A stretch of DNA of 56,176 nucleotides from a virus (taxonomy: Duplodnaviria; Caudoviricetes). The stretch lies in the IMG/VR virus record IMGVR_UViG_3300036976_000004, positions 1 through 56,176 of that record. The stretch is one strand, 5' to 3'. The first letter of the stretch is position 1. Each line of letters starts with the position of its first letter. Below the pieces are notes generated by a model. That model worked only from the letters and a program-made list of their open reading frames with translations, ran no database searches and had not been told where the DNA came from. Positions 35,857-52,875 of this stretch are shown here, piece after piece. Position numbers and translations under genes: made by a program.

Positions 35857-35938
35857 GCTGTTTATTTTTTAGTAACGTTTCACAACTTGAGATATAAAAA
35901 ATTGAAATAACTTTTCATATCTATGTTTTATAGGGCAT

Positions 35939-36280
35939 TTAACCCTCAATCGTCTGTGAACAGTACGCTTTGTTGGCTATATAGTCAACAGCGTAAACCT
36001 TGCCTCCATATTTGGTTTTGCAGTTGCTTAAATAGTTTTGCAATGTGTCTGGCCACACATCTATTTCATTATCATTATCGTCTTTAAATCTCCATCCACC
36101 AAATTTGTTCGGCTTCGCACACTCTGGTATCATTACGGCAATTGTTTGCCATTTATCAAGCGGTACAAGTAAATCATAGTCATTGCTTTCAATATCCTCA
36201 CCCATTAGTTTTTTAGCCTGTGAGCCAACCAACAAAGCTCCGTGTACGCACATTAAATATACTGTTCTTGGTAAAATCAT
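35939..36280 (-). CDS. Minimal nucleotidyltransferase-like protein (cassette cargo)
   Basis: LVGS...DYDLLV...EIDVW pol-beta superfamily signature. Confidence 0.55.
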   Translation of the reverse strand: MILPRTVYLMCVHGALLVGSQAKKLMGEDIESNDYDLLVPLDKWQTIAVMIPECAKPNKFGGWRFKDDNDNEIDVWPDTLQNYLSNCKTKYGGKVYAVDYIANKAYCSQTIEG

Positions 36281-36415
36281 AATAAAAACACCCTATAACA
36301 ATGTATATAATTCAGTGGTGTTATAAGGTCTATTTAAACCACTGTGCAGTTTTGTAATTTTATCGGTATGCGAAAAGTCCTGCAATCAATAGCCACCGAA
36401 ATCATATACTAAACG

Positions 36416-36610
36416 TTAGGCAACATTTCTGTACCTAATATATAATTTACCGTCAAATAATCTCCAACCTATTTTATGCGGTTTCCCTTCATTCTCATAT
36501 CTCCACCAAATCATAAGCAGTTTGTGTTTTTCATTTACTTTTTGCAACCAATAATAAAAATGTTGCCTAACATTTTGTAAATGTGATTTGGGTTTATTCT
36601 CGTTATTCAT
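36416..36610 (-). CDS. Hypothetical protein starting inside attC-like hairpin
   Basis: GTT core lies inside the ORF (..QNVRQH); stop lies within GCCTAAC. Confidence 0.5.
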   Translation of the reverse strand: MNNENKPKSHLQNVRQHFYYWLQKVNEKHKLLMIWWRYENEGKPHKIGWRLFDGKLYIRYRNVA

Positions 36611-36697
36611 CTCTATATCAATTTATTAAGTTAATACTATTTTTGTAGTGTAGTGGGTTCAATCCCAAACTACACTTACAATTTGCGTTAGGCACAA

Positions 36698-37012
36698 TTA
36701 TCTCAATTCAATTTCTGTAACTTGTGCCGTGGGCAAATCCCAGTTTATTTCATCATACCAAAATGGCTTTGGCTTATCGTAATTACCATCATCATAATAA
36801 TGGGCTATTCGGTCTTTATTGTTTTCAATAATGCGGTTATATTTATCCCGCCATTTTTCAGCTCGTTCTTTATCGGCAGTAGCAAATATGTGGCGTTCGG
36901 TGTAATCTTCGTATTGCCCACTACATACCATTACCAAGTAAATAACTGTGCCTAACAACGTATCATACGCCATTGGCTTGCTGTCATTTGTAGTTTCTTT
37001 CTTTGTTGTCAT
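36698..37012 (-). CDS. Hypothetical protein starting inside attC-like hairpin
   Basis: ..YDTLLGTV encoded by attC right arm and core; IYLVMVCSGQYEDY motif. Confidence 0.6.
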   Translation of the reverse strand: MTTKKETTNDSKPMAYDTLLGTVIYLVMVCSGQYEDYTERHIFATADKERAEKWRDKYNRIIENNKDRIAHYYDDGNYDKPKPFWYDEINWDLPTAQVTEIELR

Positions 37013-37087
37013 TATATCAAGTATTTAAAGTTTTGTAATTCTAATTAAAAGCCAACAGGCGCATATACAAACCTTTGTAAAACATTA

Positions 37088-37125
37088 CAAATCTAAACAA
37101 TTCTTTATTAAGAATCAATATGTAT
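37088..37125 (-). promoter_or_regulatory. Gap-11 promoter heading cassette locus C
   Basis: caaatcta 37088-37095; attaagaatcaatatgtat 37107-37125. Confidence 0.65.
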
Positions 37126-37312
37126 TAGGAGGTTTTGAATATTTACGCTTAGGTTTATTCGATTCAGATACTAATGATCTAAGATATAACTTTATCTTAT
37201 TGATAGTCTCAGCATATTCTTGTGCTGATAGCTTTCCTTTATTTGCTATCAACAATAACTCCTGTGCTTTTCTTTCATAATTCATTTGCTCGGTGTTCAT
37301 TTTTATTAACAA
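37115..37312 (-). CDS. Hypothetical protein (start probably 37285)
   Basis: Operon member. Confidence 0.45.
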   Translation of the reverse strand: MLIKMNTEQMNYERKAQELLLIANKGKLSAQEYAETINKIKLYLRSLVSESNKPKRKYSKPPNTY

Positions 37313-37538
37313 TAAATTCCAGCCATTTAACCGGGTCTTGCCCTTCGTGTTTTAAGCTATTGATTGCGGTTGCTATTACATCCGCTAACTCTTCGTAGTA
37401 TTCGATATCTGTGTTACTAGATTCAACTTCATTTACTTATTCTTTTAATTTTTCAATAAAATCGAATCTGGAAGTAAGCGGAGTAATACAACCCCGCTTT
37501 ACTATACTATTGTAATTTCTTTCTATTAATTCTCGCAT
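37275..37538 (-). pseudogene. MazG-like pyrophosphohydrolase with in-frame TAA (37437-37439)
   Basis: ..FIEKLKE*VNEV...YEELADVI..; the stop replaces the second Glu of the EExxE motif. Confidence 0.65.
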
Positions 37539-38713
37539 TGATCTAATAAGCTTGTTTGTTTGTTACCTTCCTTGAATCTATTATTAACTTGTTCAAGATT
37601 TATTTTTGATTGCTTAAAATAGCTATCTTTTAATTCAATTCCAATAGCCTTACGACCTAGTGAGACAGGACTATAAACTTCTGATCCAACACCCATAAAT
37701 GGAGTTAAAACAACTTCACCAGGATTTGAATATAATTCTACTAATCTATCAATCACATCTAATTGTAAAGGGTGAACGTGTTTCTCGTCGTCATCTTCCT
37801 TTGAATCACGGAAAGGTAATACATTATCAATTCTTATGTCATCCCAAACAGACGATGCGTAACGCTGCCAGATGTAATGACTTAATTTATTACTTTTTGG
37901 GTCTTTATGATCTTGATACTTATTGTTCAAGTGTTCCCATAATTGAGATGCATTCAAATTTGATTTATTAGCATTATTCCAAGCTTGTAGAATGTTTGGT
38001 AATATTGGAGTTTCACCAAAATACCTTTTTAATCCGTTTGGATGTGTTACCGGAACTTTGTTTTCTCCTTTTTTAGTGAAAATTAATACATAATCAGGCA
38101 TTGCGGTGAAGCACTTTGTTGAATCTTCTACAATAAACTTATGCATTAATGATTGAACCATTGTACGCATACGAACTTTTAAAGGCTCTTTCCATATCGT
38201 TATACGGTTTCTGTATTCAAATCCGTATTTCTCGTGTATTTTAATTATTTCGTGTGGAAAATCCCAAAGACGGCAAGTGTTATCAAAAACATCTGTACAG
38301 TGAACTGCGGATATTCTACCGGGTTTTGTTACCCTCGCAATCTCTTTTACAAGGAATTCATATTGATCTAAGAATTGTTCTTTTGTTTCACAGTTTGAAA
38401 AATCATTTTCAGAAGAACTGTAATTGTATAATCCAGCAAACGGAGGGGAATATATTGATAAATCAACACTTTCATTTTCTAAAGTTGGTAATACATATAT
38501 GCAATCTGAATTATAAATCGCATAGTTTTCTGTGATAATTTGGTCTTTTACTTTATTTTCAGACACGTTTAAACATTCTGTTATTTCATCTTCTGACACT
38601 TCAAAACCAGCTTTATTTACTCCTTTTTTTATTTTATTAACCATTTGTTTATCTATCTCTTTTATTTCTTCAAGTGTTTTAGGACCTTGTGTAGTCTCAA
38701 ATTTCTTTTTCAT
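37526..38713 (-). CDS. DNA amino-methyltransferase (N4-C/N6-A, beta class)
   Basis: SPPF motif IV; H..P and PFMGVGSE motif I; GIELK. Confidence 0.88.
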   Translation of the reverse strand: MKKKFETTQGPKTLEEIKEIDKQMVNKIKKGVNKAGFEVSEDEITECLNVSENKVKDQIITENYAIYNSDCIYVLPTLENESVDLSIYSPPFAGLYNYSSSENDFSNCETKEQFLDQYEFLVKEIARVTKPGRISAVHCTDVFDNTCRLWDFPHEIIKIHEKYGFEYRNRITIWKEPLKVRMRTMVQSLMHKFIVEDSTKCFTAMPDYVLIFTKKGENKVPVTHPNGLKRYFGETPILPNILQAWNNANKSNLNASQLWEHLNNKYQDHKDPKSNKLSHYIWQRYASSVWDDIRIDNVLPFRDSKEDDDEKHVHPLQLDVIDRLVELYSNPGEVVLTPFMGVGSEVYSPVSLGRKAIGIELKDSYFKQSKINLEQVNNRFKEGNKQTSLLDQCEN

Positions 38714-38716
38714 GTC

Positions 38717-40084
38717 TTATAAAAATTTAGGTTTAATAATTTCTTGATTAAATTCTTTCTTGGTTTCGGTGTATGATCTATTAACGTTTTTAGTTAAATT
38801 CTCATACAACTCAATAGCCTTTTGCGTTTTTTGCTGCAAAGATTCTAAAACTCTTGTTTGCCCGTCAGAGATAACCATATCAATAGTAACATCTCTTTTT
38901 TGCCCGAATCTCCAGAATCTACGGATAGCTTGGTAATACTGTTCATAACTCCATGTAGGGAAAAATACAGAATGATTACAATGTTGCCAGTTAAGCCCCA
39001 TTCCAGTCATCTTAGCTTTAGTTATAATCCTTTCGATGTTCCCGTTTGCAAAATTCAGTAGAATATCTTCTTTCTTTTCGATTGACATACTGCCTTTAAT
39101 TTCTACCGCATCCTGATCTAATTCATTCAACAAATCACTTTCATTATTCAGATTACACCAATAAACAGATGTTTTATTTTCTGCTAATTGCACAGCTTTT
39201 TCACAACGATCTTTAATAGTTTGAACTTGTTCGTGTCTTACTTCTGTCATTGTTTTAGCTATAGGTGTGAACATTTGAACTTGTCCGTTAACATCAATTA
39301 ATGATTGATTTTCTACAACATGTTTAACTGTATCTAGTTTCGGTAAAATATATCTTTCGTCTGAAAATCCAATATCTGACGGCATTTTAACCATAATAGA
39401 CCATTGATTTACCCATGCAAAGAAATCCTTTTCAGCGTGAGGTTTTAAATAGTATTTTTCACCAATATTACGAGCGTTACTATCAGATGAATTTTGATTG
39501 TTTTTAAAGAATTTACCTAACATATCCATATACCCCATATACCCTAACGCCTCCGAACTTGTTCCAAGCTCGATAAAATCGTTAGGACTTGGTGTAGCTG
39601 TACTAAGAAATCTATAAGGAATTTTTTTCACAAATGCGGTCACCTGGTTTTTAATCTTACCGTCAAAGTTTTTAAGGATTGAGCTTTCATCAAGAATTAC
39701 AGCTTCAAAATCTGAACTATTGAAATAATGTAATCTTTCGTAGTTACAAATAACTATTTTCTTTGTGTAATTACCATCTTTCGAATATTCAATATCATCA
39801 ATACCCATTTTTTCAGATTCAATTAAGAATTGAAACGCTACAGCTAAAGGAGTTAGGATAAGTACAGGTTTATTCGTGTGACGGATTATATTGTTAGCTA
39901 TTGATATTTGGATTAATGTTTTTCCTAATCCAGTATCAGCAAATACAGCCATACGACCTTTGTTTACAGCTTTTTCAATTATATATCTTTGAAAATCGAA
40001 AGCCATATCAGGTATGTAGTTTACTTTTATCCCTTGATCGTTAATTGAATGCTTTTTTGATTCTATAAATTCTTGGTATTTCAT
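38717..40084 (-). CDS. SF2 (SNF2-like) helicase
   Basis: DTGLGKT, LDESS, STATP, GLNWQ and QAIRRFWRFGQ motifs. Confidence 0.88.
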   Translation of the reverse strand: MKYQEFIESKKHSINDQGIKVNYIPDMAFDFQRYIIEKAVNKGRMAVFADTGLGKTLIQISIANNIIRHTNKPVLILTPLAVAFQFLIESEKMGIDDIEYSKDGNYTKKIVICNYERLHYFNSSDFEAVILDESSILKNFDGKIKNQVTAFVKKIPYRFLSTATPSPNDFIELGTSSEALGYMGYMDMLGKFFKNNQNSSDSNARNIGEKYYLKPHAEKDFFAWVNQWSIMVKMPSDIGFSDERYILPKLDTVKHVVENQSLIDVNGQVQMFTPIAKTMTEVRHEQVQTIKDRCEKAVQLAENKTSVYWCNLNNESDLLNELDQDAVEIKGSMSIEKKEDILLNFANGNIERIITKAKMTGMGLNWQHCNHSVFFPTWSYEQYYQAIRRFWRFGQKRDVTIDMVISDGQTRVLESLQQKTQKAIELYENLTKNVNRSYTETKKEFNQEIIKPKFL

Positions 40085-40279
40085 ACTTCGTTTTTGTTTC
40101 AGCTAATATACTACTTATTTAGTTTAGAATTAATCTATATAACGATTTTACAACTTAATATATAAAAAATAGCGGCCGTTATGCTCCAAACAATCTAATG
40201 AGTTATTACTTATACGTTGTACACCGCTACTCAAGCCTGATTTTACCGCTACTTTTCATATCTCATTAGTTAGGCATAA

Positions 40280-40483
40280 TTAAGCTGGCGAAATATCGCA
40301 GTTCCATTGCCATAGCTTCATCATATCATCCCACCAAATGCTTATATCCTTGGTTTTATATCCGCATTTCTCAAGTAAGTGCTTTCTTATGTCTTCCTCT
40401 TTTACTGGGTCATTTGTTTTGCCCTCTGCAAACCCATCACACGGGTTATCTCGTATTTCAAATTCATCTCGTTTTAGTTCCAT
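40280..40483 (-). CDS. Hypothetical protein (cassette cargo)
   Basis: Bounded by complementary cores. Confidence 0.6.
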   Translation of the reverse strand: MELKRDEFEIRDNPCDGFAEGKTNDPVKEEDIRKHLLEKCGYKTKDISIWWDDMMKLWQWNCDISPA

Positions 40484-40622
40484 AATAAAATAACTATGCC
40501 TAACAATTTGTAAAAATAATAGCCTAGTTAGGCGGTTTATTTAAGCTATTACTGTAATTAATTATCGTTTCAGTTATTCGAATTTTTCGCAACTAAACAT
40601 AGCTACGGGCGTTACATTCCAT

Positions 40623-40958
40623 TTAATCACGCATGTACCACGGTTTATAAACTTGCTCTTTTTTCTTACAGTGTGCTCCTAACCCATCATGCAATTCCCC
40701 ACAGCTATTGCATCCATTACTTTGTATGGTGTGCTCGCAATCATCACACAAAGGAGCACCACATACCAGTCCTATTGTTTCGGGGCACTCTCTTGTTGCT
40801 TGTGCTCCACAGCTTACACATTTTATTCCTTTGTGTTCTTCGCAGAATCCACTTTCATCTGCTTCTTTTCCACATTTGCCAACCCACGCCTTATCAAAAC
40901 GGCATGTAACACTATGTAAAGTGCATGGCTGTTCGGTATTTGAATTTTCTGTACTCAT
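40623..40958 (-). CDS. Cys/His-rich putative zinc-binding protein (cassette cargo)
   Basis: Multiple CxxC/CxxH; N-terminus ..PCTLHSVTC encoded by attC arm. Confidence 0.6.
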   Translation of the reverse strand: MSTENSNTEQPCTLHSVTCRFDKAWVGKCGKEADESGFCEEHKGIKCVSCGAQATRECPETIGLVCGAPLCDDCEHTIQSNGCNSCGELHDGLGAHCKKKEQVYKPWYMRD

Positions 40959-41047
40959 ATCTAAAACTGCTTTAAGTTTTGAAATTATGTGGCTTTGTTT
41001 AAGGCAGCCACAACACCTTACATTTTCAAAGATAACACTATTATAGT

Positions 41048-41341
41048 TTAGATTGATTTTAAATTAATTAAAATAGCGTTTAAATCATCTATATACTCTT
41101 CATCCTTAACATCTAAATATCCTTGAATCTTATTGATAGATTGCCATATATTAACCCTTTTACAGTGAGAATATTTACTGATTTTATTCGGGCTTATATT
41201 TAAATATTTATTCAAAATGTACATAGTCATGTGTTTGCCTTTGATAATATTACCATCTTGGCATGTGTTGTACGTGCAATCATAATCTGATAGATTATAA
41301 TATTCTGCTACTGCTTTTATTACTTGTTCTGGTTTAATCAT
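41048..41341 (-). CDS. DnaA domain IV-like HTH protein
   Basis: VIKAVAEYYNL...MTMYIL...SINKI pattern; leaderless gap-11 promoter 41346-41383. Confidence 0.55.
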   Translation of the reverse strand: MIKPEQVIKAVAEYYNLSDYDCTYNTCQDGNIIKGKHMTMYILNKYLNISPNKISKYSHCKRVNIWQSINKIQGYLDVKDEEYIDDLNAILINLKSI

Positions 41342-41382
41342 GTCACAAATTTATGTTTTATTATGTTTAGAATGAATTTAAA

Positions 41383-42198
41383 TTATTCAGGTAAATAATC
41401 TTCTAAATCACATTGCATATCTTTCAATTCTGTGAAATACTCGTCTACAGCTCTAGCCATTGATATAGTTTTAATCTTAGCTTTCACATCTCCTGGAGTA
41501 TTTCCTTCTTTCATTCGACTGATTGTGTCTTTTAACACTCTTCTTTCGTGCATAGGAATATTAGTAGTTACTTTCCTTATATTCTCTTCTAGAAGCTCTT
41601 TTTCAACTTCCTGTTTAATTCTTTCCCTGTCTTGTTCCGGTGTCTCGTAAATTTTTAAATCATAAAGCGTTGTGTAAAGCGCACGGTAAAGTCCTATTTT
41701 TTGCTTATAATCTCCTTGCTTGTGCGATTTAAAAGAGTTAACCAGTACATTGATACTCTTTTTCTTTTTTTCTTCCTTAGAAGGCTCCTGAAGCTTATTT
41801 TGACTTTCATAGTATTTTGTCATAACTGGTTTAGTGTATTCGTAATATTCTGTCATAAGCCCCATAAAAAAAGCCAAGCTTATAGTTTGGTCGTACAACT
41901 TTAGATCGTAGCTGATTTCCTTTTTTAGTGCTTTTCTTAAAGCTAATAAAACATCTTGCTCCGACCATCTTTTTAATTCAACTCTTAGACCCTGGATCAG
42001 GAATTGTTTTTCTTCTTCTGCTTGTGGAAGGTTTCTCATGGGCCAACCGAGCAGCACCATAACTTTTTTTATGAAGTTTTTAAGGTCTGTGTCCATAAGC
42101 TCAGATATCTTTTTTTGAAATCTGCTTTCTACTATTTCTTTATCACCAGTTTTTAATCTGCTCAAACCTGTCTGGTTTATCTTGATTAGTTTGTTCAT
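41383..42198 (-). CDS. Hypothetical replication-module protein
   Basis: Directly after initiator (helicase-loader position). Confidence 0.5.
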   Translation of the reverse strand: MNKLIKINQTGLSRLKTGDKEIVESRFQKKISELMDTDLKNFIKKVMVLLGWPMRNLPQAEEEKQFLIQGLRVELKRWSEQDVLLALRKALKKEISYDLKLYDQTISLAFFMGLMTEYYEYTKPVMTKYYESQNKLQEPSKEEKKKKSINVLVNSFKSHKQGDYKQKIGLYRALYTTLYDLKIYETPEQDRERIKQEVEKELLEENIRKVTTNIPMHERRVLKDTISRMKEGNTPGDVKAKIKTISMARAVDEYFTELKDMQCDLEDYLPE

Positions 42199-42871
42199 CT
42201 TTCTGTTTTTTTATCCAGTTTAAAAAATGTTCTCTAAAATCTTTTTCGGTTTTCATTGTGTTTTTGGTCGCAACCAAATGCATTTTAAATTTTTCAAGGA
42301 ATTTTAATACATCTGGTGGTTTACGTTCTGTTAAATTACTAACTATTCCGATATAATTGTTATCAATTTGTAATCTATTATAAATTTCATTAGTAGATTC
42401 AATTGGTGGCGATGGTTCCGGTTTTTCTTCTTCATCTTCTTTACTATTCTTTACTATACTTTCTTCTTCTTTACTTTGCTTTACTTTTATTGCTTCGCTA
42501 TTGCTAAGCATTTGCTTACCTTTTGCTTTACTTTTGCCACCTATTGCTCCGGCATCCCTTCTTTTTTGCTTGATTTTGTCTAGCTTTTCCATTCTTTTTA
42601 GCAAAGATTTACTATAGAAATATTCATTATCCTTTTCCAGTAGCTCACATTCAAATAAAACGTTTATTTCTTCAATTTCGCATCTCAATTCATAAGCAAT
42701 ATCTTCTAAATCGGTTAGTGATAATTTATAGTTTTCTGACTCTCTTAACATCTCAATAATGCACCAATACATACCATAACCTTTTAAACCTAACTTGCGC
42801 CTAAGTTTAATTATACGTATGTCGTTACGTGCATTAGAATCGTGAGAAAAATAATAAGCATCCTTAGCCAT
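42143..42871 (-). CDS. Replication initiator (DUF4373/Lin1244-like)
   Basis: YYFSHDSNARND, GYGMYWCIIEML, AGAIGG and HFLNW motifs. Confidence 0.8.
   Translation of the reverse strand: MAKDAYYFSHDSNARNDIRIIKLRRKLGLKGYGMYWCIIEMLRESENYKLSLTDLEDIAYELRCEIEEINVLFECELLEKDNEYFYSKSLLKRMEKLDKIKQKRRDAGAIGGKSKAKGKQMLSNSEAIKVKQSKEEESIVKNSKEDEEEKPEPSPPIESTNEIYNRLQIDNNYIGIVSNLTERKPPDVLKFLEKFKMHLVATKNTMKTEKDFREHFLNWIKKQKDEQTNQDKPDRFEQIKNW
42476..42548. repeat. Putative origin iterons inside initiator gene
   Basis: TTGC(T/C) at 42490, 42501, 42512, 42523, 42534 (11-bp period), flanked by copies at 42476 and 42544. Confidence 0.5.
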
Positions 42872-42889
42872 AACTTAAATTTTAATTTG

Positions 42890-42933
42890 AACCATCCGGG
42901 AGAATCGAACTCCCGGTGTATTCCAAAATGGTT
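42890..42933 (-). ncRNA. tRNA-like T-loop minihelix
   Basis: AACCAT..CCGGGAG-TTCGATT-CTCCCGG-ATGGTT. Confidence 0.45.
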
Positions 42934-43469: not shown

Positions 43470-43511
43470 TTTTTAATAGTTTTTAAGATATAAATTAGTT
43501 TAGAAAATTTT

Positions 43512-43667: not shown

Positions 43668-43755
43668 ATTTATTGTTTTAAACATTAAAATTCTTACTCC
43701 AACAAAAAGGGATGTTCAGTCCCTCAATGCAAATATATAAAATTATTTTAATCTA

Positions 43756-44654: not shown

Positions 44655-45941
44655 TTATATACTTTTACTTTGTTCAACGATATCAGTTGAGATTTTACCA
44701 AGCAGTGTTTTAACTCTGGTTAATATCGCTTTCGCTTCGTCAGATTTAACCTCCGGTAATTCATAATTAAGTAAATCTTGCGATAACTTAGCAAGTTTTT
44801 GTTTATCCGGTGCTAATCTTGCAGCTTTTTCGGCTTTTCTTTGCTCTGCTTCGATTCGTTTACGTTCTGCCTCTTCTGCATCCTTTTTTGCTTTTTCTTC
44901 TGCTAAACGTTTTCTTTCGGCTTCTTCTTTAGCTTTTAATTCAGCTTCAATCTTTTCACGCTTAATCCTTTCTTCACGTTCAATTCTTTCTCTTTCTTCT
45001 CGTTCAGCTTTTAATTTAGCCTCATACGCTTCTCTTTCTTTTCTTTCCTTTTCCTCACGTACTTTTCTCTCAGCTTCGGCTTTAGCTTTGCGTTCTTGTT
45101 CTTCCTTCTCAGCTTGTAATTTACGGGCTTTTTCTTCCTCTAATCGTTTACGCTCTTTTTCTTCCGCTTCTTTCTTTAGCCTCTCATTTTCAATCCTGAT
45201 CTTTTCTTGTTCAGCTTCATAAGCTTTTTTAGCTTCGATAAGAGAATTCAACAATGATTTATAATCATTATCAGGCATGTTGCGTAGGTCATTCGATTCA
45301 GTGATAAATTGAGCGTATGGAGCTAGTTCTAAACGTCTTTCTTGCTCAATCTTATTAAGGCGTTCATTTTCTTTTCTTTCTTCCTCTGCTTTTTTCTCTG
45401 CCTCGATTTTATCATTGTGAGTTTTTTCTAAACCCTGTAACATTACATCAAACATAGAATCTGATAACCCTTCAATTTCTACTCTATTAATCTCAGGATT
45501 GAATTTTGAAACTTTTTCTAATCGTAATTGAATAACTAATTCTCTTTGCTCTGCTTCGTGACGTTTAACAAAATCAGCTTTGAATTTAGCTTTTTCTTCG
45601 ATAGCTTTAAATTTAATCTGCATGATTTGCTTTGATTTAAGCCATAAAGAATCCTCTAATTTATAGTCTCGCATTTGAGCTTGCACCTCTGATCTTTTTG
45701 CGTCGAAAAGTTTTTCTGCATTTAATCTAGCTGTTTTAGCGTTCTTGCGTGCTGCATCAGCTAAATTAATACTCATAGTATCGTTTACATCTTTTACTAC
45801 GATTTCATCAACTTGTTTTTCCCATTCAGATGTTCCGGTGAAAATCTGATTTAAAACGTCTTTTACTTCTTGCTGTTTTTCTTCTGATACCTGAACAGCT
45901 AGGTTGTTTACTTCTTCTGGTATTACAATTAATTCACTCAT
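44655..45941 (-). CDS. Long charged coiled-coil protein
   Basis: E/K/R/A-rich heptads; LAPDKQKL C-terminal motif. Confidence 0.7.
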   Translation of the reverse strand: MSELIVIPEEVNNLAVQVSEEKQQEVKDVLNQIFTGTSEWEKQVDEIVVKDVNDTMSINLADAARKNAKTARLNAEKLFDAKRSEVQAQMRDYKLEDSLWLKSKQIMQIKFKAIEEKAKFKADFVKRHEAEQRELVIQLRLEKVSKFNPEINRVEIEGLSDSMFDVMLQGLEKTHNDKIEAEKKAEEERKENERLNKIEQERRLELAPYAQFITESNDLRNMPDNDYKSLLNSLIEAKKAYEAEQEKIRIENERLKKEAEEKERKRLEEEKARKLQAEKEEQERKAKAEAERKVREEKERKEREAYEAKLKAEREERERIEREERIKREKIEAELKAKEEAERKRLAEEKAKKDAEEAERKRIEAEQRKAEKAARLAPDKQKLAKLSQDLLNYELPEVKSDEAKAILTRVKTLLGKISTDIVEQSKSI

Positions 45942-46005
45942 TTTTATTTTTGTTTTTGATTGTGATTACAAATATATGTTACTTATTATTAAGAATCAAT
46001 ATAAA

Positions 46006-46941
46006 TTAGAATAACTCAGGTAAAGATAATTTTACTTGTGCAAAAATAAAATGCTGCAATGTTTTATAATTAATAGTAGGGTTTTTAAATTCCTTAACAA
46101 AATTCCAACTCTCTTCCCTTACAACATCATAATAAACTGTATTTAATAGTCTTGGTATTTGTTTACTGTTAAATCCACCTTTATCAATTTCAATCTTAGC
46201 TTTCACTTTTTCGCAAAGTGCTGTAGTTACATATTTCTTTGCAATTTCTTCTTCTACCATCTTTTTACCTTCAACTTTTGGAGTACCCATTACTTTAGAA
46301 TGTCTTTCTTTAAATTCAGCAGTAACTATTTTAGCCCATGTTTGTCTACCGTATTTATTGAAGAAATCATAATTTTTAATTACAATACCTTCACCAGTCC
46401 CTTTACCGTCTTGAATTAAGAATACATTCTTTTCAAGCTGATTAATGAATTGCTCATAGCTTGCACGCTCAATTATAGCTAATGGTGGTATGTAATCAAT
46501 ATTATGTTTCTCTAGTAATGGTTTGTATTCGTGGTAATGTAAGTATTTGTGCTGACTATCTCCTTCATGTTTAATTTCGCTTTCATCTTTATCTATAGCA
46601 ACATCAAATACATAGAAATGCCTCCAAGAATCTTCTCTATATGTTTTTAAACTATGAGGGACTAACCATTCACCGAACAATCTATGCGTAGGATTCTCTT
46701 TTAGATAAGCTATTAAATTATCTTGCTCTTTAGCCCATTTACAAAAACCTGCATTATCATTTTCAATAGTTAAATGCCTTTTACGGCTCCCGGCTTGTAA
46801 TTCTCCGTTTTCATCAATCCAAATACTAGCATTTGTTCCGTCGATTTTAGGGAAAATATAACATTCACCTAATTCAATGTTTTCTACTTCGGTAGTGCCG
46901 AATCTTTCAATGTGTTGATACTTTTTAAATTCTTTTCTCAT
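46006..46941 (-). CDS. ATP-dependent RNA ligase family protein
   Basis: KIDGTN motif I; FGEW, FYVFD, EGIVIK and AKIV motifs. Confidence 0.75.
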   Translation of the reverse strand: MRKEFKKYQHIERFGTTEVENIELGECYIFPKIDGTNASIWIDENGELQAGSRKRHLTIENDNAGFCKWAKEQDNLIAYLKENPTHRLFGEWLVPHSLKTYREDSWRHFYVFDVAIDKDESEIKHEGDSQHKYLHYHEYKPLLEKHNIDYIPPLAIIERASYEQFINQLEKNVFLIQDGKGTGEGIVIKNYDFFNKYGRQTWAKIVTAEFKERHSKVMGTPKVEGKKMVEEEIAKKYVTTALCEKVKAKIEIDKGGFNSKQIPRLLNTVYYDVVREESWNFVKEFKNPTINYKTLQHFIFAQVKLSLPELF

Positions 46942-46952
46942 TTTATTTGATT

Positions 46953-47162
46953 TTAAAATAACTCAGGATATTCAATATCTATAGCTATGTATTTATTCTT
47001 ATTACTTATTTTATTCTTTTTCTGATTAGAAAATAATACTAAAGTACGATATGAATAAGACAATAATTGAACGTGTCCGGCATTATATTTAAATCCCTTC
47101 TTTTCCCACCGTTTAATTATACGGTTCTTAAATCTTTGTTCGGATAAATACCAGACTTTCAT
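46953..47162 (-). CDS. Hypothetical protein
   Basis: Operon member. Confidence 0.45.
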   Translation of the reverse strand: MKVWYLSEQRFKNRIIKRWEKKGFKYNAGHVQLLSYSYRTLVLFSNQKKNKISNKNKYIAIDIEYPELF

Positions 47163-47164
47163 TT

Positions 47165-47341
47165 TTATCTGTTTGGATAGTATCTATTATGTTCTTTCTT
47201 GCAAAATACATGCATTGCGTTAGCTGTAAATGCACTCATGTAATTCTTTTGTTGCTCTTTTGTTAATTGTTCTATTTCGTTTTTCTTAAGCTCTTTAAAT
47301 TTACCGTCTTTAATCCAAGGATTCTTTGTACTGAATAACAT
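47165..47341 (-). CDS. 58-aa protein resembling the capsid N-terminus (not in ORF track)
   Basis: WIKDGKFKELKKNEIEQLTKEQQKNY vs capsid WMQDGKFKELTADEIKGLTPEQLGEY: 15/26 identical, ungapped. Confidence 0.65.
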   Translation of the reverse strand: MLFSTKNPWIKDGKFKELKKNEIEQLTKEQQKNYMSAFTANAMHVFCKKEHNRYYPNR

Positions 47342-47498
47342 AATTATTTAACCCTTCCCTTATTTTAATTATTTCTCTCTTGTTTAATTCGCTGATTTCA
47401 GAACGTGAAAAAAGGGATAATATTTTAATGTGATTGTGAAAAATAAATCCCTCTTTTCTTTTCTGTTTTAAATACGTATATAGTTGATTGTTAATCAT
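47310..47498 (-). CDS. Hypothetical protein
   Basis: Operon member after SSB. Confidence 0.45.
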   Translation of the reverse strand: MINNQLYTYLKQKRKEGFIFHNHIKILSLFSRSEISELNKREIIKIREGLNNYVIQYKESLD

Positions 47499-47501
47499 TT
47501 A

Positions 47502-47843
47502 TCAGAAGGGTAAATCTGAGTCTTCATCTGGTTCAGGCGGCAAATTATCCATCTGTGGTTGGCTGGATTGTACTCCTCCCATTTTGTCAATCTTCCACAT
47601 CTTTACATCTGTATACCACTTCTGATTATACTCCCTGGATTCAATGTTGATCCCGACTTTTACAGATTCACCAGAATTAAGAGATTTTATAACATCTACT
47701 TTGTTACCCCAAGCACAAATACATATCTTTTTTGGATATTGCTCTTCTGTTTCAATCACAAATTCAATCTTCTTCCATTCTCCGTTTTGTCCTTGCCCGG
47801 TTACTTCCGGCAAGACTTTTAATACTTTTCCTGTTACTTCCAT
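47502..47843 (-). CDS. Single-stranded DNA-binding protein (DUF3127)
   Basis: EWKK.EFVIET..QYPKK, ESREYNQKWYT, acidic tail DLPF. Confidence 0.85.
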   Translation of the reverse strand: MEVTGKVLKVLPEVTGQGQNGEWKKIEFVIETEEQYPKKICICAWGNKVDVIKSLNSGESVKVGINIESREYNQKWYTDVKMWKIDKMGGVQSSQPQMDNLPPEPDEDSDLPF

Positions 47844-48070
47844 TATTTACTTATTAAAATTCCGTGCTTTGTTTCTTTTCTCGTAAATGATACATACTTT
47901 CTTCCTCTAAGGTTAAGCAATCTTTTATGTAATGCTTCAACTTCAATATGCACGTTGTCTAGTTCATCGTTAACTAATACGAATAAACTATCAATGTAGA
48001 ACGGGCTTTGAATAATGTTAAAGCAATTGATAATAGTTTGGTTAACCTTTCCTATCTTATCCTTTCTCAT
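47843..48070 (-). CDS. Hypothetical protein
   Basis: Coupled ORF. Confidence 0.45.
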   Translation of the reverse strand: MRKDKIGKVNQTIINCFNIIQSPFYIDSLFVLVNDELDNVHIEVEALHKRLLNLRGRKYVSFTRKETKHGILISK

Positions 48071-48305
48071 ATAAGCTTTCTTTTTTGTCGATGCATTTAT
48101 ATGTAATTCTTTCTTCTTCTCTTAATTCGCTTAATTTACGTCTGATTGTGTCGGGGTGTACAGTTTTTCCATACGCAATCCTGATACGCCACCCAAAACC
48201 GTATAAATCGCTACATACTTCTTCTACTACATCATGTAGGTAGAATCTGTTATGAATTTTATCCCAAACTTTGATAATTGTTCTCTTTACTGCTTCGTGT
48301 TTCAT
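48057..48305 (-). CDS. Winged-helix-like hypothetical protein
   Basis: PDTIRRKLSELRE motif; first gene of leftward operon. Confidence 0.55.
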   Translation of the reverse strand: MKHEAVKRTIIKVWDKIHNRFYLHDVVEEVCSDLYGFGWRIRIAYGKTVHPDTIRRKLSELREEERITYKCIDKKESLYEKG

Positions 48306-48407
48306 AATATTTTGTTTTGATTTAAAGCAAAATTAATAAATAAAATAATACAAAACTAATTATAGCTTTATTTGTATGGATTCTAAATAAAACCTTATCT
48401 TTGTAGT

Positions 48408-48471
48408 GACTCTTCTTTCATTTCATTTTGTTTTTATACCTCGGCTGGATTAATTTTCAGTCGAGGTTTTT
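48408..48471 (+). ncRNA. Candidate late small RNA (~64 nt)
   Basis: Gap-7 promoter (box 48370-48388, tatctttg 48396-48403), no ORF, terminator 48438-48471. Confidence 0.6.
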
Positions 48472-48509
48472 ATTTATATTGATTCTTAATAATAATGTTA
48501 GTATGTTTG
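48472..48509 (+). promoter_or_regulatory. Gap-11 promoter heading cassette locus E
   Basis: atttatattgattcttaat 48472-48490; tatgtttg 48502-48509. Confidence 0.7.
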
Positions 48510-48637
48510 TAATGTTTTACAACGGATAGTAATATGACCTGTGCGACAATTACGCACGAGCTACACTTGAATAAACGCAATTATGCACCTTGCGCTATTC
48601 ATTTTATTTATTGTTGTGGTGCGTTAATTTAAAAACA

Positions 48638-48850
48638 ATGGAAACTTTTAGATGGAAAACAGATTACTACCACGCTGACAATAATACAACGATGTTAGAA
48701 TACTTAGATTTATTTTTGCCAGAAGATGCTATTGAAATTATGGTTGATGGCACTTACGCTGAAATAGAAAGAGACGGTGTTAAATATGCAGTACACGCAA
48801 GTGGTGACGGTGATTCATTCAACCATAAAGTTGAGTTTGAGGAACTATAA
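48638..48850 (+). CDS. Acidic hypothetical protein (cassette cargo)
   Basis: ATG 48638 after aaaaaca; stop abuts GCACCACAAC. Confidence 0.65.
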   Translation: METFRWKTDYYHADNNTTMLEYLDLFLPEDAIEIMVDGTYAEIERDGVKYAVHASGDGDSFNHKVEFEEL

Positions 48851-49005
48851 TGCACCACAACGTTAAATATATGGCAAGTTGGGTATTAAGATGTGCTACC
48901 CTATCGAGCCACAACAAAGTAAATTAACAGCACAAATATTGCAAACTGGCACACGCCCCCAATTTGCTATATACATTGTTATAGGGCGTTTTTAATACTA
49001 AAACA

Positions 49006-49326
49006 ATGATTAATTATAACACAGAATTTCTGATTAGAGTAAAGGTAAACGACTTTTATCCTAGCAATTGGTACACTTACCGCACAGAGCGAAAAATAAT
49101 AGGTTTTATTACAAGAAAAGCAGGGATTTACAGAGAGGTATTTGAAGACTATTTAGGTGAAAAAGTGCCAAAAAACCATACTTTAAAAGATGGTGTTGTT
49201 TATGAAAACCCTGAATGTATATTATGCTATGCTGACGGAAGCGAAAAAACCTATTATTTTGACAATAAAAGTGATGCCGTTGAATTTGGAGCAAAGTTTA
49301 CCGTTGGTGATAAATGGGTGAATTAA
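49006..49326 (+). CDS. Hypothetical protein (cassette cargo)
   Basis: Bounded by complementary cores. Confidence 0.65.
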   Translation: MINYNTEFLIRVKVNDFYPSNWYTYRTERKIIGFITRKAGIYREVFEDYLGEKVPKNHTLKDGVVYENPECILCYADGSEKTYYFDNKSDAVEFGAKFTVGDKWVN

Positions 49327-49420
49327 ATGCCCTATAACTAAACATAGATATGAAAAGTTATTTCAATTTTTTATATCTCAAGTTGTAAAATCTTTATTTA
49401 AACGAAAAAAATATAATATT

Positions 49421-49675
49421 ATGAAGAATTATTTAAAATTAGCGATGTCTTTTTTAATTTTATCAGGGTTGTTAACATTATCAACTATTGTAATTAAAAA
49501 TGATATAGATAAATATACTGATAAGTATAAAAATAAAGTTGGTGATAAGATTGTTTTTAAATCCGATACATTAATGATAATTGATTATTCCATAATCAAA
49601 AATACATTCACTTTGGATAATGGTAAAGAGATTAGTTTTTACTTGGTATATCAATTAAATATTGTTGATGAATAG
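49421..49675 (+). CDS. Membrane-anchored hypothetical protein
   Basis: N-terminal TM. Confidence 0.55.
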   Translation: MKNYLKLAMSFLILSGLLTLSTIVIKNDIDKYTDKYKNKVGDKIVFKSDTLMIIDYSIIKNTFTLDNGKEISFYLVYQLNIVDE

Positions 49676-49762
49676 CTATCTAAAATCATTATAAATTAAC
49701 ACTTTTATTTGGTTGTGTTAAAATAATTATTATCTTAGCATTCAATTTAAAAACAGAACATT

Positions 49763-50035
49763 ATGGATAAATACAGACATTTAATCGAAAGTTCAGAGTA
49801 TGAAGTAATGGAGTTTGACGAATATACTGTACTATGTTATGAGTTACTTCCAGAAGTACAAGAAAACAATATGTACCCTGCTGGTAGTCGATATGCTGAA
49901 ATACGTCAGATATTATCTTATGACTATGAGCAAAGTAGGTGGATTAAAGCGACCGAAGACCCTTGTGAGCTTGCAGGATATCCAATGAATTACTATGATT
50001 TAAAACTAAATAACAGACTAGGAGGGATACAATAA
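49763..50035 (+). CDS. Hypothetical protein
   Basis: First gene after canonical promoter ~49708-49739. Confidence 0.55.
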   Translation: MDKYRHLIESSEYEVMEFDEYTVLCYELLPEVQENNMYPAGSRYAEIRQILSYDYEQSRWIKATEDPCELAGYPMNYYDLKLNNRLGGIQ

Positions 50036-50337
50036 TGATTACAACTATTAATTTACAAAAAGGATTCAATATTGATGCTGAATTACATTATGAATCATAT
50101 GATTTGATTAAGTTAATCGTAGCTTGGGATGTTGAAGTATTCAAGCAAGAGCAAGTAGCCGATATTGCAATTAAAGTCGATTCTATGACTTTAGAATTTG
50201 AATACGACGGTGTACCAGGATATGTGATTTTAGATAAAAATATTGAAGCTATATTAGGTGAATTTAACCCAATAGTAAACATCCACCCACAACAAGTACA
50301 ATTTTATCCAGATAATACAAGTAAGGTATGGTTTTAA
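50035..50337 (+). CDS. Hypothetical protein
   Basis: TAATG coupling. Confidence 0.55.
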   Translation: MITTINLQKGFNIDAELHYESYDLIKLIVAWDVEVFKQEQVADIAIKVDSMTLEFEYDGVPGYVILDKNIEAILGEFNPIVNIHPQQVQFYPDNTSKVWF

Positions 50338-50582
50338 AAGAAAGATTATTATCAAAAGCAAAAGAACTAGGGGTGTCAGAATTATCTATAGCACTAGCTA
50401 TTTACCCTAAACATATGGCTAATTATATTGATAAAGATTCTGATAAGAGAATAGTAAGATTTAACGCCTTACAAAGTCTTAGACTAGTTTATAGAGGTAT
50501 AACAGAATTAAAAGCATCTCAAATTATCGCATTGAGTGAATTACTTAATGTTAGTACTGATTATATATTGAAAGGAGAATAA
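50328..50582 (+). CDS. XRE-like HTH transcription regulator
   Basis: LKERL...and IIALSELLNVSTDYIL motifs. Confidence 0.65.
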   Translation: MVLKERLLSKAKELGVSELSIALAIYPKHMANYIDKDSDKRIVRFNALQSLRLVYRGITELKASQIIALSELLNVSTDYILKGE

Positions 50583-50584
50583 AG

Positions 50585-51211
50585 ATGGGAACCTATAAAA
50601 CATTATCGTCAATAGACGTTAACAATAAAACCGAAAAGAAGAACGGATTAATATATTTATCATGGGCTTATGCATGGGGGGAGACTAAAAAGAAATATCC
50701 AGAAGCTAAATATGAGATTCTTAAAAATGAACAAGGATTACCATATTTTGAAAGTGAGTTAGGTTATATGTGTTTTACAAAAGTAACTATAGATAATGAG
50801 ACTCACGAAATGTGGCTTCCTGTTATGGATGGGGCTAATAAAGCTATGAAAAAAGAATCTTATACTTATAAAGTAAAGGATTGGAACGAATCAAGGGCAC
50901 AGGGTAAAGATGTCTATAAAGATAAAACAGTTGAAGCGGCTACAATGTTTGACGTTAATAAAACTGTTATGCGTTGCTTAGTTAAGAATTTAGCTATGTT
51001 TGGTTTAGGGCTTTACATTTATGCTGGTGAAGATTTGCCAGAAGTTCAGGAATCAACATTAGAAGAAGCTTTATCAGATGTTAAAGCAGTGAAAACAGAA
51101 GCGGAGAGAGGTTCGGTTTGGTCACAACATAAACACTTACAATCTAATGAAGAATTTGTTACTGCAATTAAAAAGAAAGCTAAAGAAATAAAAGAAAATG
51201 AAACGAAGTAA
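50585..51211 (+). CDS. Sak3/DUF1071-type single-strand annealing protein
   Basis: YLSWAYAW, MWLPVMD and NKT.MRCLVKNLAMFGLGLYIYAGEDLP motifs. Confidence 0.85.
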   Translation: MGTYKTLSSIDVNNKTEKKNGLIYLSWAYAWGETKKKYPEAKYEILKNEQGLPYFESELGYMCFTKVTIDNETHEMWLPVMDGANKAMKKESYTYKVKDWNESRAQGKDVYKDKTVEAATMFDVNKTVMRCLVKNLAMFGLGLYIYAGEDLPEVQESTLEEALSDVKAVKTEAERGSVWSQHKHLQSNEEFVTAIKKKAKEIKENETK

Positions 51212-51680
51212 AGACATGTTCATGGAAGAACGAGAAAACGAACAAGAAAGAAAAGATTTTTTTGAACCTAAATCTAATCTAAAAGAAATTGACTTTAAAA
51301 CTGAAATATCAGAAATGATAGCCAGAGTAGAAGAAGGTTATGAAAATGAGTTAGAAATCTATTGTCTCTTGGATGATCTGCAAAAAAGCATTGAAGCCGC
51401 TAAAGAGAGAATTAAAGTAGCTGCTATTGCTGTGCGCGAAAAATATCCTGAGAAAACTTTAGAAAAGTTTGGAAAGAAAATTTCTATAACTTCCGGTGGT
51501 CGATATGATTACAAAACTAATGATGAATGGAAATCGTTAGATAGTAAACGTAAAGAAGTTGAGAAGAATATGAAAACTGCTTATGACATGTATAAACAAG
51601 GTAAGGAATTAGTTATAGATGGTGAAATTATACCTCCTGCCGAGTTTAAACCAAGTAAGCAATCATTAAGATTAGGATAA
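51198..51680 (+). CDS. Conserved hypothetical recombination-module protein
   Basis: RYDY...EW..L and GEII.PA motifs; follows Sak. Confidence 0.65.
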   Translation: MKRSKDMFMEERENEQERKDFFEPKSNLKEIDFKTEISEMIARVEEGYENELEIYCLLDDLQKSIEAAKERIKVAAIAVREKYPEKTLEKFGKKISITSGGRYDYKTNDEWKSLDSKRKEVEKNMKTAYDMYKQGKELVIDGEIIPPAEFKPSKQSLRLG

Positions 51681-51792
51681 TGAAAAAGATTCTAAAACTA
51701 TCTATTGCCGCGATATCATTTTTCGCGGCTTTAGAAATATTCTTCTTGATAATTGGTTATATTTCATTATATTTACGTGAACAAATAATATT

Positions 51793-51999
51793 ATGGCAGC
51801 TTACGTAAATGAATATGGTTATTTATTTGATGGTGATGATATAATTATAGGGTTTTCATCTTGTCTATATGAAAATAAATCAGGTGAATTGAAAGATGTA
51901 GTTATATTTGTAACAATATATAACCATCCAACACGAGAAGAATTTTCGAGAATACTAAAAGATGATGTAGTAATTATACCTGATTTAAGTCTGAACTAA
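51793..51999 (+). CDS. Hypothetical protein
   Basis: TAATG coupling to next gene. Confidence 0.45.
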   Translation: MAAYVNEYGYLFDGDDIIIGFSSCLYENKSGELKDVVIFVTIYNHPTREEFSRILKDDVVIIPDLSLN

Positions 52000-52484
52000 T
52001 GAAAGATAAGGATTATAACGAACTTTTAGAATTTCAACATGTAGGTGGTGGATTAATTCCGGTTAACCCTAAAGCTATTGAATTACTAGAACACTCAAGA
52101 AAAGGTGAGATAATTCAGTTTAAAGAAATAACAGCGAGAGATTTGAAATTCCATAAATGCTACATGTCTTTACTTGGGTTTATTTATGACTATCTACCTA
52201 CAGGATTCAGAAACAGAATATCTAAAGATAGATTTTACATATTTTTAAAGAAATTGCAGGGATTATACACTGTTGAACACACATTCAAAGATGGAACTGA
52301 GATGATAAAATATCATTCAATATCATTTGGGAATATGTCTCAGAAAAAGTTTGAGGAATATGTGAAAAATCAATTACCATTTATCTATGAAGAAGTGATA
52401 AGAGTATTCTTTGATGGAGACATAGCAAACGGAATAATTGATACTATAGAAGAAGAGTATAAGAAGTTTATGAGTAAATTGTAA
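51999..52484 (+). CDS. DUF1367/NinB-like protein
   Basis: R.LKFHK and SISFGNMSQ..FE motifs. Confidence 0.6.
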   Translation: MKDKDYNELLEFQHVGGGLIPVNPKAIELLEHSRKGEIIQFKEITARDLKFHKCYMSLLGFIYDYLPTGFRNRISKDRFYIFLKKLQGLYTVEHTFKDGTEMIKYHSISFGNMSQKKFEEYVKNQLPFIYEEVIRVFFDGDIANGIIDTIEEEYKKFMSKL

Positions 52485-52489
52485 TAATG

Positions 52490-52875
52490 TTTTACAACGG
52501 TTTGGCTATGTGTTGTTGCCAAACGATAAACTTTCAAAACAACACTAAACCTTGACGGCAATAACATATAGCTGTTATTACCGCCAGTTAATTTTAAATT
52601 AAATGACTGTTAAGCAACTTATAAAAGAACTTGAAAAAATGCCACAAAACGCAAAAGTTTATTATCAGGACTTTGACGCAGGAGAATTTGAAATATCATC
52701 TTCCCCGTCTTATGTGTGGATAGTTGACTTTAACAAAGCTACCGACTATGAAAACAAAATGCAAAACGACTTTAAAATGAAAGGAAAGGTTGTTTGTATT
52801 CACGCTTAATTGGCGGTAACAGTAAAAAGATATGAATAGTACGAAGTATTATTTATATCTTAAGTTGTAAAATCG
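52490..52875 (+). mobile_element. Integron-like cassette locus F (one cassette)
   Basis: Opens TTTTACAAC 52490; TTACCGCCA(52578)/TGGCGGTAAC(52820); closes GTTGTAAAATCG 52864. Confidence 0.8.
52603..52809 (+). CDS. Hypothetical protein (cassette cargo)
   Basis: MTVKQLIKELEKMPQNAKV motif. Confidence 0.65.
   Translation: MTVKQLIKELEKMPQNAKVYYQDFDAGEFEISSSPSYVWIVDFNKATDYENKMQNDFKMKGKVVCIHA

Follow-up and report, generated by a model that had tools for sequence, protein, structure and literature searches.

The build of integron cassettes is regarded as fixed, a gene followed by its attC site with the bottom strand antisense to the gene, and this build lets promoterless genes be expressed after capture. 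Whether the opposite build exists is the question raised by IMG/VR record IMGVR_UViG_3300036976_000004, the complete 56,176-bp genome of a virulent-type siphophage of Flavobacteriia (its whole length is called the window here). The genome contains four short arrays (A1 to A4) of small open reading frames (ORFs) with imperfect hairpins of ~80-125 nucleotides (nt) between the ORFs, and each array terminates in one copy of a hairpin that we call X. The initial annotation of the window had proposed that a cassette consists here of a hairpin body, a GTT core, an ORF and a final ..AA, the mirror image of a classical cassette. This polarity is supported by the co-segregation of one cargo gene, cargo U, with the hairpin upstream of it, by the way in which X appears to be split around the arrays, and by the asymmetry of the site junctions. 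From these sequence comparisons, we read the arrays as probable mirror-image integron cassettes (probability roughly 0.7), forming an attC cluster that lacks an integrase and resembles those known as CALINs, with the ORFs on the strand that matches the classical bottom strand and the hairpin preceding the gene.

Cargo U and the hairpin that travels with it

Cargo U lies in array A3, which spans positions 48515-49390 and has the following features.

48515-48615, plus strand: first site of A3 (s8), with the putative left remnant of X, TTTTACAAC, right after the promoter-like TATGTTTG, then a unique body and GTTGTGGTGC.
48639-48850, plus strand: first cassette ORF of A3; its unit (48613-48861) has the 10-nt inverted repeat GTTGTGGTGC.
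48859-48980, plus strand: site s9, whose hairpin accompanies cargo U; stem of 16 pairs, two of them G.T, with spacers of 6 nt and 4 nt.
49006-49326, plus strand: cargo U, 106 amino acids (aa), no family; its unit (48978-49338), with GTTATAGGGC and GCCCTATAAC at its two borders, is found again in L013, L107 and L108.
49336-49390, plus strand: X3, the conserved terminal hairpin of A3.

The initial annotation had suggested looking for the same cargo in other genomes and asking which hairpin goes with it. The cargo U ORF is 87-94% identical at the nucleotide level across four unrelated contexts, namely the window, a viral contig (L013; L109 is the same contig) and two metagenome contigs (L107 and L108), which gives six pairs. 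Beyond the cargo U unit, L013 and the window have nothing else of note in common. It is the upstream hairpin that co-segregates with the gene: its body is homologous in all six pairs (66-91% identity, a score reached by 0-1 of 300 shuffles). The 110 nt located 5' of the preceding AAC are unrelated in six of six pairs, and the 110 nt located 3' of CCCTATAAC are unrelated in five, the exception being L107-L108 (score reached by 2 of 300 shuffles). The shared sequence starts at the AAC that belongs to the preceding site, takes in the upstream hairpin, then the GTTATAGGG core and finally the ORF, and breaks off exactly at CCCTATAAC, after which the four contexts have four different hairpins. The upstream stems differ by compensatory changes, for example GCAAGTTGGG/CCCAATTTGC versus GCAAGGCAGG/CCTGCTTTGC. 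Cargo U is thus a gene cassette in the sense of a unit bounded at the AAC/GTT triplet and found in several contexts, with AAC at both sides, but not one of classical build, with the ORF on the top strand and the hairpin 3' of the gene, since the upstream hairpin is the one that co-segregates.

An independent assortment of ORFs and bodies was first read from L013 and L024. Taken alone, the upstream bodies of L013 and the window (p ~0.04) were first judged unrelated; L107 and L108 are intermediates in which the upstream body is homologous but diverged, and the idea was dropped for this reason.

The same test was applied to bacterial arrays. A helicase search led to a Flavobacterium metagenome-assembled genome as a starting point, and 401 Flavobacteriales genomes were sampled, five of which contain IntI-like ORFs (integron-integrase model TIGR02249, E<=1e-40). 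Three IntI-like proteins reach 228-236 bits on TIGR02249, whose cut-off is 265, and 227-236 bits on NF040815, described as tyrosine recombinase/integron integrase (cut-off 220), and the integrase-like protein of locus L166 shares 36% identity with IntI1 over 70% of its length. Cassette arrays lie 3' of the IntI-like gene, and are co-oriented with it, at L164 (G328:C9, 7071-9482) and L166 (G193:C80, 1-4819), the two of the five loci that have enough flank. L164 contains four copies of a 172-nt cassette without an ORF that are 97-100% identical; the downstream body is 99-100% identical among them, and the 125 nt upstream just 36-72%. These copies keep the downstream hairpin, so the same test returns the classical answer in a bacterial array.

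Hairpin X and its apparent splitting

The remaining arrays, of which A1 runs from 37082 down to 35877 on the minus strand and A4 spans 52490-52872, are made up as follows.

36954-37082, minus strand: first site of A1 (s1); the putative left remnant of X, TTTTACAAA, right after the promoter-like TAGATTTG box; ends in GTTAGGCAC.
36698-37012, minus strand: A1 cassette ORF1, likely start 36931 (77 aa) because the GTTAGGCACA core occupies 36947-36956; unit 36687-36956 with a 10-nt inverted repeat.
36569-36689, minus strand: A1 internal attC-like site s2; GTGCCTAAC, 5-nt spacer, 22-pair stem, 3-nt spacer, GTTAGGC.
36416-36610, minus strand: A1 cassette ORF2, at most 64 aa, with its stop inside GCCTAAC; unit 36415-36571 with the 14-nt perfect inverted repeat GTTAGGCAACATTT.
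36297-36417, minus strand: A1 internal attC-like site s3, GCCTAAC ... GTTATAGGG.
35939-36280, minus strand: A1 cassette ORF3, 113 aa, no family, between GTTATAGGG and CCCTATAAAAC.
35877-35936, minus strand: X1, the terminal hairpin of A1; on the coding strand CCCTATAAAAC, AT, stem AGATATGAAAAGTT/AATTTTTTATATCT, CAA, GTTGTGAAA.
40623-40958, minus strand: Cys-rich ORF, 111 aa; 88% nucleotide identity in L024, where homology stops at ATGTAACGC; N-terminus and leader common to L026.
40488-40622, minus strand: A2 upstream region s6, with GCCTAAC, 22 nt and GTTAGGC, and also TTTTTACAAATT.
40280-40483, minus strand: A2 cassette ORF, 67 aa, between GTTAGGCATA and TATGCCTAAC.
40152-40271, minus strand: X2, the conserved hairpin with a long inserted loop, directly 5' of the helicase gene.
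52490-52576, plus strand: first site of A4 (s11); TTTTACAAC remnant, unique body, then GTTATTACCGCC.
52603-52809, plus strand: A4 cassette ORF, 68 aa, with PHROG matches of unknown function.
52818-52872, plus strand: X4, the conserved terminal hairpin of A4.

A conserved hairpin followed by AAGTTGT had been noted from the start as the last body of each array, and all four copies are present, at 35877-35936 and 40144-40278 on the minus strand and at 49329-49392 and 52810-52875 on the plus strand. The dotted pattern given for it in the initial annotation, when transcribed literally, has no match in the window at up to three mismatches, because the loop length varies. The motif TATATNTNAAGTTGT has four exact matches, precisely at these four places, and two one-mismatch matches elsewhere (20545 and 48857); with one mismatch allowed, the total is thus six where shuffles lead one to expect 0.52, and none of 100 shuffles reaches six. 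X1 and X3 (35.9 kb and 49.3 kb) are indeed near-identical, from TTAAATGCCCTATA to CAAGTTGT, after genes that are unrelated (BLASTP E=28), and the opening hairpin bodies of A1, A3 and A4 are mutually different, as had been claimed.

The array borders have a second regularity. Three of the four arrays (A1, A3 and A4) open with TTTTACAA(C/A), their first letters being AATGTTTTACAA(C/A)GG, and TTTTACAA is the complement of the right core of X, GTTGTAAAA. All four arrays close with the X body and GTTGTAAAA (GTTGTGAAA in X1). TTTTACAAC, which is GTTGTAAAA (the right end of X) in reverse complement, has five exact matches in the window on both strands, all five at array borders. X looks like a repeated backbone element (TTTTACAAC, stem-loop, GTTGTAAAA) that has apparently been split by inserts between TTTTACAA and C, that is, at AA/C on the coding strand. 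The stretch from AAC to the X stem varies among the four copies of X and AAC is common to all sites, so the crossover is resolved no finer than AAC. X also recurs along the backbone, since positions 49382-52498, with nine predicted ORFs including a homologue of a single-strand annealing protein, are bounded by GTTGTAAAA (the right core of X3) and TTTTACAAC (the start of A4). This backbone run shares its inverted-repeat form with a single cassette unit.

Immediately before arrays A1 and A3 stand promoter-like words that close with a TAnnTTTG box, which we take to be the Bacteroidetes -7 consensus. Two families of such promoter-like repeats, both with the TAnnTTTG end, occur in the window. Members of the first are located at 1734, 3948, 11940, 13616 and 55478. 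The second is found at 29081 (plus), 37116 (minus), 45997 (minus) and 48481 (plus); A1 and A3 start right after members of this family, and the copy at 45997 is accompanied by neither X nor a cassette.

An unsplit X was not seen among 11 X-motif matches in IMG/VR, all of them unrelated by context, and X is upstream of the helicase gene in none of 80 viral loci. In the one sequencing run containing the phage whose contigs were searched, possibly the source sample, the Logan contigs break inside X1 and X3, a repeat effect.

Each small ORF is bracketed by its own perfect inverted repeat of 9-14 nt of the form GTT...AAC (GTTAGGCAACATTT, GTTAGGCACA, GTTAGGCATA, GTTGTGGTGC and GTTATAGGGC). The total in an inverted-repeat scan, 21, equals the shuffle maximum (shuffle mean 12.6), and just five GC-richer array units stand out. 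In L020, where a homologue of the A4 cassette ORF is found (41% aa identity), the flanking inverted repeats have co-varied with those of the window. No informative Pfam or PHROG family was detected for the array ORFs.

Junction asymmetry

If the phage coding strand plays the part of the classical bottom strand, its sites should mirror those of bacterial arrays read in the same way. All junction features were read on the coding strand, in 13 sites of the two Flavobacteriales integron arrays and in 19 phage sites, six from the window and 13 from L012, L013, L020, L024, L026, L074, L099, L107 and L108. The four copies of X were scored separately.

Base after AAC: bacterial (13), A in 11 and G in 2; phage (19), G in 18 and T in 1, the latter being the mislocated L024_c; X (4), A in 2 and T in 2.
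Base before GTT: bacterial, C in 13; phage, T in 19; X, A in 4.
Spacers: bacterial, 5' spacer shorter in 13; phage, 5' spacer longer in 18 and equal in 1; X, 5' spacer longer in 3.
Stem G.T versus A.C pairs: bacterial, 8 versus 15; phage, 42 versus 6; X, 10 versus 0.

Phage sites have the form AAC-G...T-GTT versus AAC-A...C-GTT in bacteria, with opposite spacer bias. When reverse-complemented, the phage sites give the bacterial pattern, and the basal arms are also similar (AAC-AATG-TATATA... and ...ATAC-TAAAC-GTT). In class 1 attC sites picked by script from two plasmids and read on the coding strand, AAC-A is found in four of five and C-GTT in five of five. Short BLAST comparisons of the phage sites with the bacterial arrays gave 64 inverted versus 33 same-orientation matches, which is suggestive.

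attC-like character of the sites

The ends of the phage sites conform to RYYYAAC/GTTRRRY. Canonical GCCTAAC/GTTAGGC cores occur eight times in the window versus 3.06 expected, seven of them within A1 and A2, and the other cores are CCCTATAAC/GTTATAGGG and CACCACAAC/GTTGTGGTG. The hairpins have the layout of attC sites (R and L boxes, an unpaired central spacer and a variable loop, ~57-141 nt), with lengths of 47-128 nt, stems of 8-25 pairs and spacers of 0-8 nt. With site calls made by eye, A1 has four sites in 1.2 kb and A3 three sites in 0.9 kb, the composition of a CALIN (at least two attC sites and no integrase nearby); the arrays do not amount to a complete integron, which has an intI gene and an attI site next to the array, as the window has no PF00589 match.

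An unpaired G in the right arm of the gene-sense strand, as in the recombinogenic bottom strand of classical attC, had been claimed for three sites; this holds only in part, and as an argument it is weak. The minimum free energy fold at 6730-6805 leaves a C and a G unpaired in the right arm, the region 24900-24970 has no attC-like fold, and the minimum free energy fold of 36948-37082 contains no long hairpin, one G being left unpaired by hand pairing alone.

Hairpins resembling attC sites are also found outside the arrays.

6738-6800, plus strand: further attC-like site with array polarity, AAACAAC-G ... T-GTTAGTAGC.

Two mutually related attC-like hairpins (ACATAAC ... GTTATGT) are located at 1813-1860 and ~7680-7728, just after a 694-aa ORF (1859-3943) and the tape-measure gene, and their polarity to these genes matches that of the array sites.

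Proposed mechanism

In the mechanism we propose, exchange would take place at the AA/C triplet at the 5' end of each hairpin on the coding strand, and the mobile unit would comprise (C)-hairpin body, GTT core, ORF and ...AA. Cassettes would have been inserted into a resident backbone hairpin, X, present in four copies, and each insertion would have left TTTTACAA at the end of the array nearest the promoter and the X body at the opposite end. The phage promoters just 5' of A1 and A3 may drive expression. Three independent tests (cargo U, L164 and junction asymmetry) agree on polarity, so that the coding strand of the phage would correspond to the classical bottom strand. Canonical chemistry with an inverted ORF would account at once for the splitting of X, for cargo U being bounded from AAC to AAC and for the mirrored asymmetry.

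No tyrosine recombinase (PF00589) was detected in the window, nor in any of four related viral records, of which two are at least 98% complete. The leading candidate for the enzyme is therefore an IntI-like tyrosine recombinase supplied by the host, which would act on the coding strand in its folded form. This candidate is helped by the published activity of IntI1 on phage attC sites, and such an enzyme presumably acts on the phage sites described here.

More tentatively, Flavobacteriia phages may maintain their own pool of mirror-image cassettes, with X just 3' of phage promoters serving as a capture platform that lacks an integrase and borrows the IntI-like enzyme of the host; we regard this as possible but doubtful. 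If so, the coding strand being recombinogenic would mean that only cassettes with a bottom-strand ORF are expressed in the phage, and phage cassettes would be silent in host integrons, which would keep the two pools apart. If in addition the genes are co-oriented with replication, the foldable strand would be on the lagging-strand template, favouring frequent cassette turnover.

Evidence against the mirror-image reading

Several observations weigh against mirror-image cassettes, and the lack of a tyrosine recombinase in the phage records is one of them. The cross-genome polarity test rests on one cargo (U): no relatives of ORF3, of the 67-aa ORF or of ORF1 were found in the viral contigs searched, and a cargo U profile found none in the genome contigs searched. 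The 13 bacterial sites come from two arrays with mutually similar members. The 19 phage sites were chosen by eye, four of them are copies of the body of one cassette and one (L024_c) is mislocated. The spacer bias was not reproduced in class 1 attC sites by a crude stem finder, the 5' spacer being at least as long as the 3' spacer in five of five. On the bacterial side, none of the five IntI-like proteins reaches the TIGR02249 cut-off. A cassette-free joint was not found in the contigs of the one sequencing run that contains the phage.

The hairpins themselves are not exceptional. DNA folding energies compared with shuffles give z values of +0.3 to -1.9 and are not clearly better, and a generic scan for AACG...TGTT stems finds 11 matches versus 4.6 in shuffles, with a shuffle maximum of 11; in AT-rich DNA, generic stem scans give much noise. 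The case is therefore built on comparisons with other sequences and not on thermodynamics. The extrahelical bases of classical sites are not evident either, the best stems being ungapped with G.T pairs according to a stem finder that models no bulges.

Two further points concern how bodies and genes are combined. The s3 body is ~70% identical to a body in L024 and both neighbouring ORFs are unrelated, which we read as an attC family common to different cassettes. In the Cys-rich ORF, a breakpoint falls inside the gene: positions 2420-2560 of L026 and 40920-41040 of the window have in common a promoter box, a small hairpin and the first ~10 codons of this ORF, and then the genes diverge. Ordinary mosaic recombination thus also operates here.

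Alternative explanations

The main rival explanation, which we consider improbable, involves no integron chemistry. The hairpins would be RNA or transcription elements of each gene (terminators, processing sites or 5' leaders) with a convergent or ancestral likeness to attC, and gene modules would be exchanged when phages infect the same cell, through a single-strand annealing protein of the phage itself or through illegitimate recombination at short linkers of conserved sequence. The phage does encode a homologue of such an annealing protein (50585-51211) and no integrase, its sense-strand stems are rich in G.T pairs (42 versus 6, and 10 versus 0 in X), as expected under selection on RNA, A1 and A3 are located within 5' leaders, close behind promoter-like boxes, hairpins of similar form come after large structural genes, and breakpoints within ORFs exist. 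However, the cargo U unit ends exactly on AAC at both sides in four contexts, and cores of 7-12 nt are short for annealing-based exchange. The cores also fit RYYYAAC/GTTRRRY, with basal arms resembling reversed Flavobacteriales attC (AAC-AATG-TATATA...), and the ORF-matched inverted repeats co-vary between homologues (A4 of the window versus L020), which fits a folded recombination site.

That the arrays have classical polarity is very unlikely. A cassette would then be an ORF with its downstream hairpin, X would be a homogenised, host-specific attC family on the last cassettes (compare the VCRs of Vibrio), and TTTTACAAC would mark resident sites with variable bodies. One attC family on unrelated cassettes is normal in chromosomal integrons, according to the part of PMC5027507 considered here, and is seen in L164 and L166; in L013 the Y body follows two unrelated ORFs, and the R'' cores located 5' of the four X bodies are cassette-specific. 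Yet classical polarity needs two coincidences, X being confined to the last cassettes and three resident sites having identical cores with unrelated bodies. Cargo U already contradicts it, with four different hairpins downstream and a single homologous one upstream, and the junction, spacer and wobble asymmetries mirror those of bacterial arrays.

A lack of any real polarity, with near-palindromes used on either strand and ORFs and bodies assorting independently, is hardly credible given the consistent asymmetry (T-GTT in 19 of 19, AAC-G in 18 of 19 and a longer 5' spacer in 18 of 19) and the one-sided co-segregation of cargo U, even though the s3 and L024 bodies are homologous with both flanking ORFs unrelated, L024 has a 29-nt empty unit between two bodies and the last A2 cassette seemingly has no upstream body. 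The empty unit, at 3780-3815 of L024, consists of GTTATGTGC, 10 nt and GCATCATAAC and resembles a cassette frame without a gene.

The phage genome and its relatives

The opening 98 bases of the window (1-98) are repeated at 56079-56176 with 99% identity, which indicates a closed or terminally redundant complete genome. Its gene content includes portal, tape-measure, capsid, terminase, RtcB, RNA ligase, DNA methylase and helicase genes and one tRNA, which is the sole match in an Rfam scan of the window. The closest named relatives are Flavobacterium phages of the snusmum/hattifnatt group, with 75% nucleotide identity in the helicase and methylase genes only. Similarity to GenBank phages is limited to helicase/methylase, annealing-protein and endonuclease/dUTPase genes, and the same arrays were found in no relative among them. 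In the cultured phage L012 (Flavobacterium phage snusmum6-1), positions 9775-10260 have an array-like build, with a hairpin, GTTAGTAGC, an ORF and GCTACTAAC.

Other features of the genome are worth recording. The RtcB gene (23675-24853), the tRNA (27511-27584) and the RNA ligase gene (46006-46941), all on the minus strand, resemble an RNA-repair set that perhaps counters host anticodon nucleases. A tandem repeat at 27956-28289, with 12- and 18-nt spacing and 17 in-register copies, overlaps ORFs on both strands. In many related contigs (L027-L106), a promoter-like box and then a structured leader are found ~170 nt 5' of the helicase start. A GC-rich hairpin and a run of T end this leader just 5' of the helicase start codon, and it may be a regulatory leader RNA.

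Significance and comparison with known systems

If the mirror-image reading is correct, the opposite cassette build occurs in the cultured Flavobacterium phage snusmum6-1 as well as in some ten uncultured contigs. Software designed for the classical build may place such attC sites on the strand opposite to the genes, and phages may keep a pool of cassettes that stay unexpressed in host integrons. Host and phage arrays with the same site family would form a natural contrast pair for studying cassette origin and strand choice, and the arrays offer a concrete candidate route by which small accessory genes enter and leave phage genomes.

Small accessory genes bordered by short repeated structured elements are also found in the promoter-early stem-loop (PeSL) modules of T4-type phages and the pdif modules of Acinetobacter plasmids. 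In PeSL modules the stem-loop is 5' of the gene. The phage sites differ from both in having integron-type rather than Xer-type cores and long imperfect hairpins, and no promoter box was seen by eye inside the phage hairpin bodies.

The L164 and L166 integrons share with the phage sites the core type, the basal arms (with the phage sites reverse-complemented), a GTT...AAC inverted repeat for each ORF and sites of ~50-126 nt. They are unlike the phage arrays in possessing an IntI-like gene, in having ORFs on the top-like strand and in that a duplicated cassette keeps its downstream hairpin.

CALINs in virulent phages have been published (Qi et al. 2023, PMC9892861). As in the arrays described here, small ORFs lie between attC-type imperfect palindromes without an integron integrase, including in Polaribacter phage P12002L, which has a Flavobacteriaceae host. 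In that study IntI1 recombined five of six tested phage attC sites, the virulent phages whose sites it acted on including a Polaribacter phage, and 'divergent directions' of attC sites were noted in one Polaribacter phage (PMC9892861). The part of PMC9892861 considered here describes no systematic inversion of ORF and attC, resident entry hairpin or cross-genome mapping of boundaries. A search within the literature covered here returned no description of such an inversion in phages, and so, with attC clusters in virulent phages already known, the systematic inversion of phage cassettes appears to be new.

In classical attC sites, the bottom strand, antisense to the gene of the cassette, folds into a hairpin, and exchange takes place at the AAC at the 5' end of this hairpin (Nivina et al. 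2016, PMC5027507, in the part considered here). A G in L'' and a T are extrahelical on the 3' arm of the classical recombinogenic strand; the phage sites show no clear counterparts, and their strand asymmetry lies in spacer length and G.T pairs. Classical cassettes otherwise resemble the phage units in their RYYYAAC/GTTRRRY cores, R and L boxes with an unpaired spacer, variable loop, AAC exchange on one folded strand and AAC-to-AAC extent (PMC5027507). The recombinogenic strand of a classical cassette is antisense and its hairpin comes after the gene (PMC5027507), whereas in the phage the coding strand would take the bottom-strand role and the hairpin comes before the gene.

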